Below are positions 16,619-54,751 of a stretch of DNA of 64,000 nucleotides, piece after piece. Position 1 is the stretch's first letter. Each line of letters opens with the position of its first letter. The DNA comes from Escherichia coli (GTDB lineage: Bacteria; Pseudomonadota; Gammaproteobacteria; Enterobacterales; Enterobacteriaceae): the NCBI RefSeq assembly GCF_050320075.1, contig NZ_CP190018.1. One strand, written 5' to 3'. A program made the translations under genes and the position numbers. Under the pieces are notes generated by a model. It did not search any database. It saw nothing but the letters and a program-made list of their open reading frames with translations, and was not told the origin of the DNA.

Positions 16619-17495
16619 GAACACACCTTTTATCTTTTATCGCTGTTCAGTATGAGTGATTACCTGTGGATTCCTGAGCACACATAAGGGGTAACCATAA
16701 ACATCAGCGATGCCATACGCATAACATCCCACATCACTATCAAAAAGATTATCTTTACCTCTGATGCTCGCTCAAAAACAGTTACGCTAAATACCTTAAA
16801 AAGGTAATCACAAGTCAAACTCAGGAGATAATCACGCAAGAATGCAATATTAAAATTCAGATACTCATTTTTGGTAATAAAGAAGTAGTTGGACTATTTC
16901 AATATTTATAATTTCCCACTACGTATTGACGCCCATTCATGAGTAAAGGCGCATTATATGAATTTAACAATCCAGATCAACTGAAAATACCTCAACCTCA
17001 TAAACACATAGCGTCAACATTCAATGACATAATGAGTAAAGATGTTGGTTATGCATACACGTCATTACTCTATGCCTATCCCTTAACAACCTGCTTTTTA
17101 AGGCTGAATCCATTCAGCAATAGATAGCCAACATTATAACAATGACAATAAAAACAATATTTAAAACAATCAATAAAATATCAGACACAGACAATTAAAC
17201 CTTAAACAACAAACAGTTACATTGATTTTAGTTGATTTGCGCTACGCGTTTCCCATGAATAAAGCGTCATTTCAAATTAGCACCAATATTTACATTAAAT
17301 AAGACTAAGCTTATTGAACATTCACAACAGTCCAAGCGTAGGTTTTGGGCTTCAATAGTTCTTTTCTTTTTTATTATCTGTTGCCTGGCAATCATCAATC
17401 GATACTAAGGGCTTAACTGTACACAGATATAACGTATCAAGAGGTAAGAGAAACCGCGCCATATGCAGACATGGCGCGGTTTTATGCAATAACAA

Positions 17496-24294: not shown

Positions 24295-24536
24295 TAAACA
24301 GCATTCTGACAGAGAGTGCCTGTATAAAACTATAGTGACAATGACCGGGAAGGGAGCCCGTCTTCAGGAATGGATTCCTGTCTTTTTCACTGTAAATATC
24401 CTGGCATTACTAATGCCAGGATATTTACAGAAGAGCAGCATAACCATGACGGAACGGGGTTAAGTCAGGTTGTCCTTAACGCTATTCACAACCTCGTATG
24501 CCGCCTTCAGGTTTATGTCCAGACTTCATATCTCTC

Positions 24537-30315: not shown

Positions 30316-30423
30316 ACTCAAAATCAGACGCCAGAACAAATATTCTGGCGTCTCAGAGAAAAGAATCTTATTAATTCTCTGTTACTCTATAACTTCTTAA
30401 TCACTTCATTGATGGTATTTTAT

Positions 30424-31265: not shown

Positions 31266-31424
31266 TAATCCGAACACTGTCTGTTGTTCACTTTTTCAGG
31301 CGTCAGGCCCCCTTTCTGATGATGAAGCCTGACGCCATATTACCGGAGATATGACAGAGTGAAGATCAATATCACTCCCCTGTTAAAAGATTCTTGTCGT
31401 CTCAGGTAAAATACATGATTAATA

Positions 31425-32294
31425 TCAATCATGTATTTTTACAGCAAGACAACCACGAACAAATTCAGGATTAAAATGTTTTACCGACTCCCCAACATAA
31501 CCCAAATCAAGCGAACTAATTTGTGCCATTTCTTTCTCTGTCAGTGAGAAATCCCAGATAGCAAAATTTTCTTCGATACGCTGTTGATGTGTCGATTTCG
31601 GAATAACGACCACTCCCCGTTGAATATTCCAACGCAGAATGACTTGAGAAATCGATTTTTGATGGGCATCTGCAATACTCTGAAGCAGATTATTTTCAAA
31701 GGGTTTATGTCGTCCACCACCTAACGGAGCCCATGCTTCAGGCTGCACGTTATAATACTTCATGGTTGCCAGCGCCTCTGGTTGGGCAAAATAGGGATGC
31801 AACTCGACCTGGTTGACCATCGGTTTAACTCTTACCGTTTCACAAAAGTTCGCCAGAACATGAGGATAGAAATTGGAAACCCCAATTGCTTTTAATTTGC
31901 CCTCTTCATAGGCATCTTCGAGTGCACGCCACGCACTGAAATAATCGCGCATAGCCTGGTGCAATAAATAGAGGTCGAAGTATTCTAGTCCCGATTTTTT
32001 TAATGATGCTTCAATACCTGCTTTTGCCGTATCCTGATTCAACATATCCTGCACCCACAATTTAGACGTTATAAATAACTCATCTCGGGTACATAAACCT
32101 TCAGATATAGCTTCACGAACGGCTTCACCGACGGCATCTTCATTACCGTATACCGCTGCAGTGTCGATGAGTCGATAACCCGTGCGGATAGCATTCAACA
32201 CTGACTGTTTGCACACGTCTTTATCGGTAACCTGAAAAACACCAAATCCCATCATCGGCATTTTCAGATTGTTACTTAATACGGAAAATTCCAC
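31425..32294 (-). CDS. Aldo-keto reductase (NADPH-dependent), about 289 aa
   Basis: AKR motifs (GFGVFQ, IDTAAVYGNE, LYLLHQ, GVSNF). Paralogue of the ORF at 38340..39191. Probable GTG start 7 nt after a GGAGGG ribosome-binding site; the track start is 32309. Confidence 0.75.
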   Translation of the reverse strand: MEFSVLSNNLKMPMMGFGVFQVTDKDVCKQSVLNAIRTGYRLIDTAAVYGNEDAVGEAVREAISEGLCTRDELFITSKLWVQDMLNQDTAKAGIEASLKKSGLEYFDLYLLHQAMRDYFSAWRALEDAYEEGKLKAIGVSNFYPHVLANFCETVRVKPMVNQVELHPYFAQPEALATMKYYNVQPEAWAPLGGGRHKPFENNLLQSIADAHQKSISQVILRWNIQRGVVVIPKSTHQQRIEENFAIWDFSLTEKEMAQISSLDLGYVGESVKHFNPEFVRGCLAVKIHD

Positions 32295-33523: not shown

Positions 33524-36500
33524 TTATTTCTCCTCAGCACCTTCAGTATCTGCAGGAACGGCGTTAATTGTCACAGTCACTGGTTTCATTTCATACCCTC
33601 CATATGTCAAAGAGTTGAATGTGAATGTGTATGTACCTGGCTTGTTGGTACTAAATGTACGCGTGATTTTCCCGCTCGCGAAATGGTCATTTTTCGACGG
33701 CAGGAACTGATAATCCGCCTCTGTCACCCCTTCCGGAGCCTCAATGTCGACCCACATGGTTCCTCCTACGGGGTTGACACCCGACATCAGAGTAACCGTC
33801 AGTGTTGCAGTAGTCTTCCCGTCCGCCACCAGAGAATCTACACGCTCTGGAGATGCAGCGAGCTCCGCGTTTTTATCATCCGCGACGAATTTAGATTCGG
33901 CAGTTTTCGTCGATTCCTGACCGTCGGCCTGTTCCACTTTCGCCGTGAGTGTATATGTCGCTGCGACAGTGGTCGTGGCGGTGAAAATAGCCTGTCCTTG
34001 CTCATTCGTTGTCGCCGTCCCATCGGGATCCAGAGCTAAATTTGCCGGGCTAGCAGTCAGCGTCACCTCGCTATCTTTCAACAGGTTGTTATTGGCATCA
34101 GTCACCGTAACTTTATACGTCTGTTTGGCTTTGCCATCCGCCAGTGCATAGTTGCCAATCACCTCAATACCGGAGACGGTTGCGGTCGCCTTATCGGCCA
34201 CAAACGTTATAGTCTGCGCATCCGAAGGCTGGTCATTTCCTGCCGATGCCGTGATCTCATAGGTTCCGGCAGTCACGGAAACCACCTGCAACTCTGCTTT
34301 CCCCTCATCGTTGGCTTTCACCCAGACATTATCGCCAGTAAGCGGCTTGACACCCCGGGGCAGATTAAAGGTCACCAGAGTGCCTGGAACAGGGTTACCG
34401 TTTTTATCCTCAACGGTCGCCGTCAGCGTAAAGGCATCTTTGCCGTTTGCCACTTTTTGAACGGCGGTGTCAACCTGCAGGTTTGCCTGACCGGTGCTGG
34501 CATCCGCGTTGAATTTCACCGTGACCGTCTTCTGAGAGTTTTTCACCGCGGCCGCGATTTCAAGTTCCCCTGCAACGGTTGATATCAACTCAATATCCGC
34601 TTTACCTGCCGCATTGGTTGTTACTGTATTCCCCGTCTTGCTAGTCACACCCTGCGGTAAAGTCAGCGTAACTTCTTGCCCCTGCAACGGGTTACCATAG
34701 CTGTCCACGACGGTCAGGGTTATCTGGTTAGCAGACTGTCCATTAGCCAGTTGGTTATTAACCTTCACTGTCATATCACGAATCTCAGCCTGAGAAGCGT
34801 CCCCTGCAACGTTCAGCACCAGTGGCTGAGCAACAGCATTTTGGCCGTTCACTCGCGGCATCACAGACAACTGACCCGCGGCAGATCCCAGCGTTAAGGT
34901 CGACACGTAGACCCCATTACCTTTCTCTGTCCAGTTTCCTGCTGAAGGACGCTCACTCCCCGTGCTGGCGGCACCGCTAAACACTGGTGCATCTGGCTTC
35001 AGCCCGGTGACCGGATTCCCGTACGCATCCTTCACGGTGAAGGTGAGTTCCGTCGTCGTTTTAACCGTTGGAGTTTTATTGTCCGCAACAAGCGTAGAAT
35101 TCGCTGATGACATCTCTCCGGCAATAACAGTCAGCTGCGCGGCTTCGGTGGCTGCTGGCTGGCCGTTGAAGAGCGGCATGACACGAAGCTCGCCCGTCTT
35201 TCCGCCTGTAGTTAACGTAGCAACATAGGAACCGTCACCTTTTTCGGTCCAACTGGAAACGGTCGCCCCTTCAGAGGCGGTCCCCGTCAAACTTGCCGAC
35301 AACGAAAGACCACTGATAGCGTTGCCATGTGCATCTTTCGCCACCAACGTCACGGTTGTGCTTTCGCCGGCTTTTACGTGATCTTCCGCGACAGAGACTT
35401 TCGACTGGTTTGAAGATAACGCATCAGCCACCACGGTTACTTTTGCCGCATTTGCTGCCGCATCCTGTCCATTTAGCTTCGGCATAACTTCTAATTCACC
35501 CGCCGTAGAGCCGAGAGTAATCTGCGCAGTCCACGTCCCATCACCATTATTTGTCCAGCCAGATGCCGTAGAACCAACAGCAGCGGCACCCGCTAATGAC
35601 GGCGCTTCCGGCGTGAGGCTGGTCACAGGGTTGTCATTGGCATCTTTTGTCGACCAGATTGCCGTAAGCGTACCGCCGACCACCGGTTTATCAGGATTCA
35701 GGGTGATGGACGAATGTGCTGCATCAAGCGGCCCGGCAACAAACTTCAGCGTTTGTTGTAATGTGCCCAGCTGATACTGCTCGCTGAAGGCGCGCACAAC
35801 AACGTTTCCGGCACGGGTCGAAGAAACCGTGGCGCTGTAAACCCCTGGTTTTATTTCCGAAATGGCACCAACGGTAACACCATTAGTGTCTTGCGGAACA
35901 AGTCGCAGGCGGCTGGCTTCTCCCGTCACCGGATTACCCTCGGAGTCCACCGCAGTCAGCGTCAGCGTGTAGGCTTGCTGACCATCAGCAACCACGTCAC
36001 CTGACGGCTCGTTAGCGCTCAGGGTGGAGTTTGCCACATCCATCATCGTGGCCCGCAGTTCTGCAGTGACGGTTTTGCTCATGCCATCAACGCTAACAGT
36101 AATCGTTGCCTCACCTGACTGCGTTCCGGTCGTAAAGACAGACTGGTACACCCCTGCTTCAGTTTCGGTGAACTCACCCAGTGTGGGCTGTGCCTGTGAT
36201 TTAGTGGCCTTCAGGGTACGAGTCACAATATTTCCAGCCGGTTTGAAGGTTAGTTCAGTCTTGATCTGCTCCTTCATGCCCGTGACTGGCTGACCCTCGG
36301 CGTCGCGCATAGACAGCACCAGCGGCTTTTGCTCATTACCGTTAGCAAGCATTTGAATACGGCTCTGACCGTCAAGCGTTAACGCCGTGCGATCGGCGCT
36401 CATACCAGCTCCGGTAATAACCACTTCTGTCTGCACACGTTTCGAGGCATTGCCTTTGTTATCGTAGGCAACTGCTGAAATCGCATAATAATTGTCTTTG

Positions 36501-37774
36501 CCTGGACGATAAGCCGGGAGCGTTACTTGCCACTGACTACCCTGACCGGTAATTTTGCCACCTTCAGCCAGTAATGACGGCGCTTCCCACTGCACATTTT
36601 TCAGTCCGTGTGTTGCTTTGCTGACCACAAGCCCCAGGGAAACCGTCTGACCGCCCTTACCTTCAATACGCTCAGGCAGAGCAATACGGATCACTTCAGA
36701 TTTGCGGTACTCAAGAACGATGTTGTTATTACGCTCAACCAGGTCATAGCGGCTGCCTGCCAGCATTCGACGCTCGCGAATGCTGTCTGTATCGAGTTGT
36801 TTTTGCAGAGGTTCGCCAATCCGATAATTAACTTCCAAGCCAAAGCGAGTGTCATTCTCACCACTCTTGCCCTGCTTATGCCCGGCACTCAGGGTCAGAA
36901 GAGGCACTGGCGTGTAATTCACTTCAGCGGTAATCGCATGTGGATCTTTCTGGCGTTTATCTTTGCCAAACAGCCCGACTTCATCGCCATAATACTGCTC
37001 ATACATCAGGCTTGCGCCAAGCTGCGGCCAGGCGGGTAAATAGCCCTCAGCACGAATATCCCAGCCATTCGCCGGGCGTTCCTGATAATCCTCAACATCC
37101 GGCGATTTTTTCCAGCCAGAAGCCCGGATATAACCATTGGCGCTCAATTTCAAATAATCACGCCAGTATTCCGCACCAACACCAATGCGGGTATGACTAC
37201 GGGATAAATCATGGTCGATAAAGGTGTTCACCCCCGCCATCCAGTCATTTCCTGAAAAATGACGCCAGCCAAAACCAATATTTGACTGAGTACGATCGTC
37301 GGTACGATGTATTGCCCCCTGAGTGAACAACATATTTGTCGGTGTATCATAAATCGGATAAAGCATTTCCAGCGAAGAATCCTTCAGCGAGAAATCTTTA
37401 TCGACATTCAGTTTGACGCGCGCAGTACCGTATTTCCCGAGCCACTCCTGAATTTCCTGGTTAGCTTTAGCGGTGGCCATTCCGGTAATAAAGTTACGTG
37501 TCGCATCGCTATCTGGCTGACTGCTTAAAAATGTCCCGGCATTTGCGGCAAACGACGCGACATTTTTCTCCACATTATTATCAGCAGCTACTGTGGTATT
37601 TTCCATGCTCAAACGTGGCTGAACCGCATGCTGCGCACGTGCTGCCATTACTGGCGTAAAGGTGACAGCGAGTGGAAAAAGAACCTGAACAGAGATATTT
37701 GCCCACGCCACGCAGCGGGCCAGAACTGAATAACGAAATCGTGGTTGTTTATGACCTGTTTTATAACGTGACAT
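33524..37774 (-). CDS. eaeH: Intimin/invasin-family inverse-autotransporter adhesin with tandem bacterial Ig-like domains, 1416 aa, apparently full length
   Basis: N-terminal signal and beta-barrel region, then many repeated Ig-like modules (for example GWTNNGDGTWTAQITLGSTAGELEVMPKLNGQ / SWTEKGDGSYVATLTTGGKTGELRVMPLFNGQ / NWTEKGNGVYVSTLTLGSAAGQLSVMPRVNGQ). Single uninterrupted ORF. Confidence 0.85.
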   Translation of the reverse strand: MSRYKTGHKQPRFRYSVLARCVAWANISVQVLFPLAVTFTPVMAARAQHAVQPRLSMENTTVAADNNVEKNVASFAANAGTFLSSQPDSDATRNFITGMATAKANQEIQEWLGKYGTARVKLNVDKDFSLKDSSLEMLYPIYDTPTNMLFTQGAIHRTDDRTQSNIGFGWRHFSGNDWMAGVNTFIDHDLSRSHTRIGVGAEYWRDYLKLSANGYIRASGWKKSPDVEDYQERPANGWDIRAEGYLPAWPQLGASLMYEQYYGDEVGLFGKDKRQKDPHAITAEVNYTPVPLLTLSAGHKQGKSGENDTRFGLEVNYRIGEPLQKQLDTDSIRERRMLAGSRYDLVERNNNIVLEYRKSEVIRIALPERIEGKGGQTVSLGLVVSKATHGLKNVQWEAPSLLAEGGKITGQGSQWQVTLPAYRPGKDNYYAISAVAYDNKGNASKRVQTEVVITGAGMSADRTALTLDGQSRIQMLANGNEQKPLVLSMRDAEGQPVTGMKEQIKTELTFKPAGNIVTRTLKATKSQAQPTLGEFTETEAGVYQSVFTTGTQSGEATITVSVDGMSKTVTAELRATMMDVANSTLSANEPSGDVVADGQQAYTLTLTAVDSEGNPVTGEASRLRLVPQDTNGVTVGAISEIKPGVYSATVSSTRAGNVVVRAFSEQYQLGTLQQTLKFVAGPLDAAHSSITLNPDKPVVGGTLTAIWSTKDANDNPVTSLTPEAPSLAGAAAVGSTASGWTNNGDGTWTAQITLGSTAGELEVMPKLNGQDAAANAAKVTVVADALSSNQSKVSVAEDHVKAGESTTVTLVAKDAHGNAISGLSLSASLTGTASEGATVSSWTEKGDGSYVATLTTGGKTGELRVMPLFNGQPAATEAAQLTVIAGEMSSANSTLVADNKTPTVKTTTELTFTVKDAYGNPVTGLKPDAPVFSGAASTGSERPSAGNWTEKGNGVYVSTLTLGSAAGQLSVMPRVNGQNAVAQPLVLNVAGDASQAEIRDMTVKVNNQLANGQSANQITLTVVDSYGNPLQGQEVTLTLPQGVTSKTGNTVTTNAAGKADIELISTVAGELEIAAAVKNSQKTVTVKFNADASTGQANLQVDTAVQKVANGKDAFTLTATVEDKNGNPVPGTLVTFNLPRGVKPLTGDNVWVKANDEGKAELQVVSVTAGTYEITASAGNDQPSDAQTITFVADKATATVSGIEVIGNYALADGKAKQTYKVTVTDANNNLLKDSEVTLTASPANLALDPDGTATTNEQGQAIFTATTTVAATYTLTAKVEQADGQESTKTAESKFVADDKNAELAASPERVDSLVADGKTTATLTVTLMSGVNPVGGTMWVDIEAPEGVTEADYQFLPSKNDHFASGKITRTFSTNKPGTYTFTFNSLTYGGYEMKPVTVTINAVPADTEGAEEK

Positions 37775-38324
37775 TGAGATAATTTCCTGATGAACGAATT
37801 AACGAACATAGGCAGACACAAATAATGGCGTCTGCTTGTCAGAAAAACCGGGGATTTCCCGGTTTCCTTTTCCGCAGAAAAGGAAATACCTTTATGTAAG
37901 AAAGTACACCGCCACCTAATATATCCAGTGTCTGTAGCCACTCATCAGGTGGTTGGGCGCGGGATTATATTTTTATTTATGGGTAAAAATTTAGCTTTTT
38001 GTGCAAGTTATTAAATAGATACTTAAGTTATATTTCTTACTCTGCGGGCAGTGAATAATTCATTATTAAGAGTGAATAATAATGACCCGTCTTTAATTAA
38101 CTGCTATTGGGAGTACGTCGAAGTGAGTATATACGCCAGGATAAACCAATATATTTTTTATGGACATTCATTTATATTCATCGGACTGTAAATTCCGGGG
38201 ATATCGAACTTGCACGACTAATCTCAACCCTCAAACAGATTTATGAATTTTGTTCATAACCCCTGACAAATCCTGCCGTCTAATCGAGCTTTTCCCTTTA
38301 CGTTATGCTTCTCATGAACGATAA

Positions 38325-41248
<2,924 letters not shown>

Positions 41249-54558: not shown

Positions 54559-54709
54559 TCAGGGATAACAAAACCCGAAACTTCTTCCATCTGCCAGCAA
54601 CAATGCCTCTTCCTCTATAGTGTTCTCCGGATCTACAGCATCCTGAAGTAGCGCGATGTACTCACGGGCTATCTGCTTCAGAAAGTAAAAAGCAATGTTT
54701 TTAACCTAT

Positions 54710-54738
54710 AAAAATGGCGCTGCATTTGCGCCATTTTT
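54710..54738. terminator. Probable terminator hairpin downstream of yagU (possibly bidirectional)
   Basis: AAAAATGGCGC-TGCATTT-GCGCCATTTTT: an 11-bp perfect stem flanked by A- and T-runs. Confidence 0.6.
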
Positions 54739-54751
54739 ATTATTCAATGCA

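Follow-up and report, generated by a model that had tools for sequence, protein, structure and literature searches.

The 64,000-nucleotide (nt) stretch of Escherichia coli DNA analysed here (NZ_CP190018.1; the window) carries on its minus strand the gene of the inverse autotransporter adhesin FdeC, known as eaeH in the K-12 remnant. Two palindromes that adjoin upstream of the fdeC start codon correspond to RNA hairpins (A and B) that are conserved and covary, and selection acts on the sense-strand RNA. The reading that we favour, with some reservation, is that A and B belong to a conserved, structured, cis-acting fdeC leader extending from about −125 to −1 relative to the start codon (37775–37900, minus strand). 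As modelled, this leader probably hides the fdeC ribosome-binding site. It is a structured regulatory 5′ leader, unannotated and absent from Rfam; the kind is known, and we infer its specific mechanism, namely transcription from a conserved block near −190, pairing of the Shine–Dalgarno (SD) region in vivo, and regulation of translation or termination.

An earlier note had pointed to two abutting palindromes at 37843–37886, and both are there: AAAAACCGGGGATTTCCCGGTTT occupies 37843–37865 and TTCCTTTTCCGCAGAAAAGGAAA 37864–37886. An inverted-repeat search found perfect 10 bp arms at 37863–37872 and 37877–37886 around a 4-nt loop (dyad A), and perfect 8 bp arms at 37845–37852 and 37858–37865 around a 5-nt loop (dyad B). 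The dyads overlap by three bases, TTT on the plus strand and AAA on the gene strand, so that the outermost pairs of stems A and B compete. They lie 71–112 nt upstream of the ATG at 37774, close to the 70–110 nt given before; the placement in the eaeH 5′ region was thus right, but the letters had been quoted from the plus strand, opposite to that of the gene. Perfect inverted repeats of this kind (arms of at least 10 bp, loops of 3–8 nt) are ∼ 15 times commoner in the window than in block shuffles (∼ 6 distinct versus 0.4 expected).

The 216 nt upstream of the ATG were found by sensitive blastn in 5035 of 5426 complete E. coli genomes, at a median of one and a maximum of two places per genome. 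Nearly all of these copies are at least 95% identical, with zero annotated features beneath them. With one copy per genome the leader is not a dispersed repeat, and the many copies that mark REP/BIME or ERIC/IRU elements were not seen. Scanning 36500–39500 against Rfam (cmscan, E ≤ 10) returned no family, only a chance match to DUF2815 (E 5.1, plus strand). For comparison we used 62 metagenome loci, found by a degenerate pattern for the FdeC N-terminus, to which the orthologous loci of Escherichia sp. E1V33, E. whittamii and the divergent E. coli strain E69 were added; 65 sequences were sampled and 17 distinct leaders analysed. Two other loci, L109 and L110, are ordinary E. coli alleles. In the metagenome contig L111 (Logan SRR24798440) nearly all differences from E. 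coli in the fdeC start region are of the C-to-T type; this suggests DNA that was damaged or treated with bisulfite, not a real variant, and the contig was ignored.

The conservation across strains that had been proposed as a check is borne out by these data. Hairpin A is identical in 59 of the 65 sampled sequences, and one E. coli variant carries a C-to-U change that leaves a U-G pair. Hairpin B exists as three common alleles, with U-G or G-U variants at four different pairs. Its loop varies, and in 15/65 sequences it is inverted (AAAUC to GAUUU) with the stem kept, which indicates that the loop sequence is not constrained. Indeed, the alleles GGGAAAUCCCC and GGGGAUUUCCC at the centre of hairpin B (37850–37860; L046, L047, L048, L055, L063 and L066) are exact reverse complements, and the inversion looks like a template-switch mutation inside the palindrome. 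In hairpin C, which lies between B and the start codon, E69 has one G-C pair replaced by A-U through a double change, and elsewhere G-U, G-C and A-U interchange. None of the 17 distinct leaders, that of a divergent Kosakonia-type ortholog described below among them, shows any change in the U-run after hairpin B. The 40 bases before the ATG are invariant except for single-base variants in two sequences, and there is a single segregating site from −30 to −1 among 42 haplotypes. One metagenome locus, L085 (SCPN01000356.1), has no hairpin A: ∼ 33 nt in the region of window 37866–37900 are replaced, giving CACTTTGGGGGAAATCGGG, while the remainder, hairpin B included, is unaltered. Either a natural deletion or a faulty assembly may lie behind this.

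Covariation was measured over the 17 distinct leaders. Ninety-nine per cent of cells are paired, a percentage that 0/500 shuffles reached. Hairpins A, B and C each contain one pair that has changed on both sides (three in all), and the covariation score was equalled by one shuffle in 500. Within E. coli, ten of 14 variant pair types keep a standard pair when read as fdeC-sense RNA, versus 4/14 on the opposite strand; this excess arises because the stem changes are mostly C-to-U opposite G. Accordingly, stem transitions are skewed (seven C>T versus two G>A, both of the latter still pairing), while those outside the stems are balanced (C>T versus G>A: 19 and 20 in noncoding, 35 and 46 in coding sequence). 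The asymmetry is modest in number. It is, however, what selection on a sense RNA would produce and not what a DNA operator would, and so argues against the latter. Of the two possibilities first raised for the palindromes, hairpins in the eaeH leader RNA are thus supported, by the compensatory double changes in the divergent ortholog and by the sense-strand tolerance of G-U pairs.

That ortholog (P0022) came from a protein search and represents a single isolated FdeC lineage, 81% identical in protein. Two sources carry it: assembly GCA_051411795.1, for which the NCBI protein labels read Kosakonia sacchari, and a Logan contig. The Kosakonia-labelled copy (L107, 2501–5252) is split into 522 and 397 aa, and the Logan copy (L113, 2420–7297) is a full 1625 aa. 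Its upstream plan is the same as in the window, with two promoter-like blocks identical to those there (TTGCACAAAAAGCTAAATT and AAAAATATAATCCCG), an unalignable spacer and then the leader. In hairpin A a U-A pair has become C-G by a double change and the loop is new (UUCU). In hairpin B, too, the loop is new, and an apical G-C pair has turned into A-U by changes on both sides. The sequence of hairpin C, GAGCA(A)CCG/CGGUGCUC, is almost entirely different yet pairs where it does in the window. In the stretch of ∼ 39 nt leading up to the AUG, the differences are U to C at the first base of 37775–37811 and, in one of the two loci, one further base. Downstream of the divergent ortholog lies an AraC/GyrI-like gene, syntenic with E. 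coli ykgA, which suggests that the locus was moved or inherited as a whole with its neighbour.

Between the window and the Kosakonia type the leader has an identity of 0.81, synonymous third positions one of 0.60 and the spacer one of 0.52; against E69 the corresponding values are 0.92, 0.75 and 0.65. The leader therefore evolves more slowly than both synonymous sites and spacer, as expected of purifying selection, and its stems are selected for pairing. A covariance model of the leader, run over the window and 35 loci (among them inverse-autotransporter loci of other genera, including a Salmonella homolog at 66% identity), matched its training sequences only, which makes the element specific to fdeC orthologs.

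Folding, the other check proposed, likewise bears out the hairpins. Both beat dinucleotide shuffles as RNA (A, z −4.2; B, z −2.9), and the 129-nt leader reaches −43 kcal/mol (z −6.1), with 0/200 shuffles as stable. In the predicted minimum-energy fold the U-run UUUUCUGA pairs with UCAGGAAA in the SD region, enclosing hairpin C; this pairing is predicted in three divergent leaders, and the same leader structure is the minimum-energy fold from 25 to 45 °C. Folded separately, the E69 (z −4.4) and Kosakonia-type (z −5.4) leaders give the same five-helix architecture. In the partition function the unpaired probability of the SD motif AGGA is at most 0.31 at 20–42 °C for every 5′ end that includes the U-run, and the SD is much more open in folds whose 5′ end falls downstream of it. 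The element is thus larger than the earlier note had it: hairpins A and B stand, but hairpin C, the U-run/SD pairing and the near-invariant 40 bases before the ATG had been missed. The 3′ arm of hairpin A itself contains an SD-like AGGAAA. The features are collected in Table 1.

Table 1. Coordinates of fdeC and of the elements upstream of it, given as window positions.
Feature	Position	Strand	Sequence and remarks
Hairpin A	37863–37886	minus	UUUCCUUUUC-UGCG-GAAAAGGAAA; perfect 10 bp stem, 4-nt loop
Hairpin B	37845–37865	minus	AAACCGGG-AAAUC-CCCGGUUU; 5 bp GC core plus A-U pairs; AAA common to hairpin A
U-run / anti-SD	37839–37846	minus	UUUUCUGA, within UUUUUCUGA, directly 3′ of hairpin B; complementary to SD region
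Hairpin C	37812–37835	minus	GCAGACGC-CAUUAUUU-GUGUCUGC; 8 bp including one G-U
SD side of predicted long-range helix	37783–37790	minus	UCAGGAAA; AGGA at −14 to −11 from AUG
3′ part of leader	37775–37811	minus	UAUGUUCGUUAAUUCGUUCAUCAGGAAAUUAUCUCA, almost invariant; weak predicted hairpin at 37791–37808
Conserved block 5′ of hairpin A	37887–37904	minus	CUUUCUUACAUAAAGGUA; from alignments
Hypervariable spacer	37905–37959	minus	between promoter-like blocks and conserved leader; length 55–68 nt
Candidate fdeC promoter region	37960–38007	minus	blocks CTTGCACAAAAAGCTAAATT (38007–37988) and AAAAATATAATCCCG (37974–37960)
fdeC (eaeH) coding sequence	33524–37774	minus	1416 aa, inverse autotransporter adhesin; ATG at 37774; from list of open reading frames

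Several further features of the leader were considered. The conserved block 5′ of hairpin A may form a small extra hairpin (CUUU/AAAG) in the models; covariation gives it no support and the register of the fold differs between lineages. A fourth helix upstream of hairpin A, GUACUUU/AAGGUAU, was rejected, being broken by common variants and also differing in register between lineages. An RfaH ops-like sequence, GGCGGTGT (37904–37911, minus strand), is a partial match to the ops core GGCGGTAG that is not present in E69 or the Kosakonia type, and was likewise set aside. Four GGA motifs were noted, one of them in the SD, and CsrA binding is a candidate only.

Where transcription begins is suggested by the pattern of conservation. 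Between E. coli, E. whittamii, E69 and the Kosakonia type the flanks of the promoter-like blocks diverge but the blocks themselves do not vary, and block AAAAATATAATCCCG contains a perfect −10 hexamer, TATAAT, at 37969–37964. This footprint (a conserved TATAAT block, a free spacer, then a conserved structured RNA) points to a start near 37958. We infer from it a 5′ untranslated region (UTR) of ∼ 184 nt. RNA-type covariation in hairpins A, B and C independently means that the start must lie upstream of ∼ 37890. Two other promoters were rejected: TTGCAC as a sigma-54 site lacks the GG element at −24, and a promoter downstream of hairpin B (−10 TATGTT or GTTAAT) has a poor −35, is unconserved and is incompatible with the covariation of hairpin C.

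We propose the following mechanism. Transcription would start upstream of the leader, probably at the conserved TATAAT block ∼ 190 nt before the ATG, and the leader RNA would fold into hairpins A, B and C, which would organize the fold. The U-run UUUUCUGA would then pair with the SD region UCAGGAAA with hairpin C enclosed, keeping the ribosome-binding site closed and translation off by default, and the adhesin would be made only once heat, a small RNA or a protein opens this pairing. Hairpin B and the U-run might additionally act as a weak intrinsic terminator or pause site. FdeC is absent under many in vitro conditions and appears on host contact (Nesta 2012, PMC3324786). As cited in PMC11143625, Easton 2014 detected it only at 39 °C and above (at least 39 °C) in enterohaemorrhagic E. 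coli and at 42 °C in avian pathogenic E. coli, and found fdeC to be repressed by H-NS. A default-off leader fits all three findings, and on our model it could underlie expression of FdeC only at temperatures of at least 39 °C. The thermosensing and attenuating roles suggested in the earlier note would both suit this anatomy, in which the U-run after hairpin B is terminator-like as well as complementary to the SD. A thermosensing role is attractive, since fourU thermometers are characterized by just such pairing of a U-run with the SD; a small RNA or a protein of the Hfq, CsrA or ProQ type could equally well open it. A more specific version, which we regard as speculative and rather unlikely, is that the fdeC leader is an undescribed RNA thermosensor or riboregulator, common to Escherichia and a Kosakonia lineage, in which a long-range fourU-like anti-SD derived from a terminator-like U-tail sets the threshold of at least 39 °C or of host contact on top of H-NS. 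In the literature searched, no paper ties fdeC/eaeH to RNA thermometers, small RNAs or Hfq beyond incidental mentions.

Several observations weigh against this proposal. The predicted opening of the SD between 20 and 50 °C is gradual rather than switch-like and depends on the 5′ end assumed, and the thermoregulation could be due to H-NS alone. The comparison covers no more than three to four independent lineages, so that independent compensatory events are few. The SD helix and the U-run are invariant, and covariation therefore neither supports nor refutes the pairing between them. The −190 block is without a convincing −35 hexamer and was not called by a simple promoter scan. Cappable-seq data from K-12 list no sense-strand start between −535 and −1 of eaeH; the start found there is at −536 (MG1655 U00096.2 313045, score 10.9, possible −10 TATCGT), equivalent to window ∼ 38310 on the minus strand, ∼ 30 nt from the start codon of the divergent aldo/keto reductase gene. 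These K-12 data are weak evidence, since eaeH is there an H-NS-silenced pseudogene, and the region around −536 is not common to E69 or the Kosakonia type. The eaeH gene does not appear in the start and end supplements of Kim 2012 and SMRT-Cappable-seq. As for termination, hairpin B scores marginally (+8 here, −3.6 with the common K-12-type U-G allele), and a simple terminator scan of the minus strand passed it over.

The alternative with most in its favour, though we hold it to be improbable, is that A, B and the U-run form the Rho-independent terminator of a separate short transcript, which they would end or insulate without any cis control of fdeC. That transcript could be a ∼ 115-nt small RNA from the −190 block; alternatively it could come from the intergenic region further upstream, as does the K-12 transcript that starts at −536 and must end somewhere. 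Hairpin B indeed has the shape of a terminator, with a GC-core stem and 5-nt loop (CCGGG-AAAUC-CCCGG, −8.1 kcal/mol) followed by UUUUUCU, and the score for this allele is positive. The usual 3′ module of Hfq-type small RNAs consists of an upstream stem-loop and then a terminator hairpin with a U tail; A followed by B and its U tail matches this arrangement, a conserved promoter-like block is present, and RNA-level selection on A and B would fit a terminator equally well. However, conservation and covariation do not stop at the U-run but run on through hairpin C to the AUG, and the putative 5′ half of such a small RNA (55–68 nt) is the least conserved part of the region (identity 0.52–0.65), the opposite of a seed region. 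The absence of the −536 region from E69 and the Kosakonia type also speaks against a separate transcript, as does the fact that no same-strand gene adjoins fdeC upstream, either among the open reading frames of the window or in the annotation. In the searched part of the Adams 2021 Term-seq supplements eaeH, ykgR and ykgP do not appear, and no 3′ end is listed there for eaeH or ykgP.

Protein-binding dyads in the DNA were the second possibility raised at the outset. Such operators could serve dimeric regulators acting on the fdeC promoter (a LysR, AraC or EcpR-type neighbour) or anti-H-NS factors, but we consider this reading quite unlikely. The dyads are perfect, the identity of hairpin A in 59/65 sequences goes beyond the need of a purely structural hairpin, LysR, AraC or EcpR-type regulator genes do lie in the neighbourhood, and transcription of fdeC is controlled by H-NS (Easton 2014, via PMC11143625). 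A constraint symmetric between the strands was not found, however: stem substitutions are strand-asymmetric and G-U pairs are tolerated. Both loops, and so the dyad centres, vary freely, one of them even by inversion; both half-sites carry symmetric double changes in the Kosakonia type; and the neighbouring hairpin C is replaced there by an unrelated self-complementary sequence. If the −190 block is the promoter, the dyads would moreover lie ∼ 75–115 nt downstream of the start. Still less probable is that the hairpins work in an antisense RNA. A sigma-70-like match on the plus strand (37799–37826, TTAACG-16-AATAAT) faces away from fdeC and through the hairpins, the plus strand also folds (z −3.7), hairpin A was called terminator-like on it, and the covariance model gave a weak reverse-strand match. 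Against this, just 4/14 variant pair types pair on the plus strand, the spacing of the promoter match is 14 nt in the Kosakonia type versus 16, and promoter-like matches are no commoner in the region than chance would give (two found versus 3.4 expected). We find it hardest to believe that the palindromes are functionless by-products of chance or mutation, such as the leftovers of a mobile element or of template switching. That the palindrome undergoes mutation of the template-switch type is indeed shown by the inverted loop in hairpin B, but the element is single-copy, evolves 2–3 times more slowly than synonymous sites, has compensatory changes and is kept in a lineage at 81% protein identity.

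The structured cis-acting leader that we favour resembles several known systems in part. Like the FourU thermometers (Salmonella agsA, Yersinia lcrF, Shigella shuA/E. coli chuA, Vibrio toxT) it has a run of at least four U that is predicted to pair, U-G included, with the AGGA of the SD, and it precedes a gene for virulence or adhesion whose product is seen only when the temperature is raised. FourU elements are, however, one short local hairpin, whereas the fdeC anti-SD and SD are ∼ 50 nt apart and enclose a hairpin. In addition, the leader has no match to the Rfam FourU family, its predicted melting is gradual, and the threshold of at least 39 °C is unusually high and may be due to H-NS. With sRNA-opened leaders (small RNA-opened, such as rpoS with DsrA/RprA/ArcZ, or shiA with RyhB) it shares a long-range stem between a U-rich strand and the ribosome-binding site, and default-off translation. 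A-rich (ARN-like) and U-rich tracts near the stem could bind Hfq; no partner small RNA is known for fdeC, unlike in those systems, and none was searched for.

The 5′ UTR attenuators and terminators mapped through 3′ ends in E. coli (PMC7815308) also combine a GC-core stem-loop and UUUUU in a long leader, here ∼ 70 nt before the start codon, with no co-directional upstream gene to terminate. Their likeness is limited by the marginal strength of hairpin B and by the fdeC leader itself, in which no antiterminator, leader peptide or ligand-binding fold was found: neither the sequence nor the folds offer an upstream complement to the CCGGG or CCCGG arms, and the only upstream mini-open reading frame (nine codons, ATG 37946) is lost in E69 and was rejected as a leader peptide. 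The ompA 5′ UTR likewise has tandem stem-loops in the leader of an outer-membrane protein mRNA. Its protective hairpin is at the very 5′ end, whereas those of fdeC are probably ∼ 70 nt from the 5′ end suggested above, and its SD is open where that of fdeC is predicted to be closed.

The FdeC adhesin is conserved broadly in E. coli, is a vaccine antigen and is notoriously silent in the laboratory. If the conserved leader does close the ribosome-binding site, it would be a concrete and mutable explanation of this silence, would account for any thermoregulation left over after H-NS, and would provide a handle for switching the antigen on, for study or for vaccine production. It would also add a family, missing from Rfam and from genome annotation, to the enterobacterial cis-regulatory RNAs.

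The gene assignment is straightforward. The open reading frame at 33524–37774 is the sole long one adjoining the dyads, and in a RefSeq record of 100% identity it bears the annotation ‘inverse autotransporter adhesin FdeC’. Its start cannot be extended upstream, because the ATG at 37774 is the first start codon after a stop. The intergenic region upstream measures 565 bp and is poor in GC (37.5% versus 52% in the gene), with the divergent aldo/keto reductase gene opposite. Homology to the K-12 type ends ∼ 550 nt upstream of fdeC (window 38325 onward). Beyond 38325 the window has two aldo/keto reductase genes and LysR regulators, where K-12 has ykgP, ykgR and ykgM–ykgO; each of the two arrangements is found in about half of E. 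coli genomes. Elsewhere in the window there are five further perfect inverted repeats with short loops and arms of 10–19 bp (24390–24430, whose arms are the 19 bp ones, 31408–31439, 54708–54740, 17451–17482 and 30326–30353), which are probably terminators or REP-type elements.

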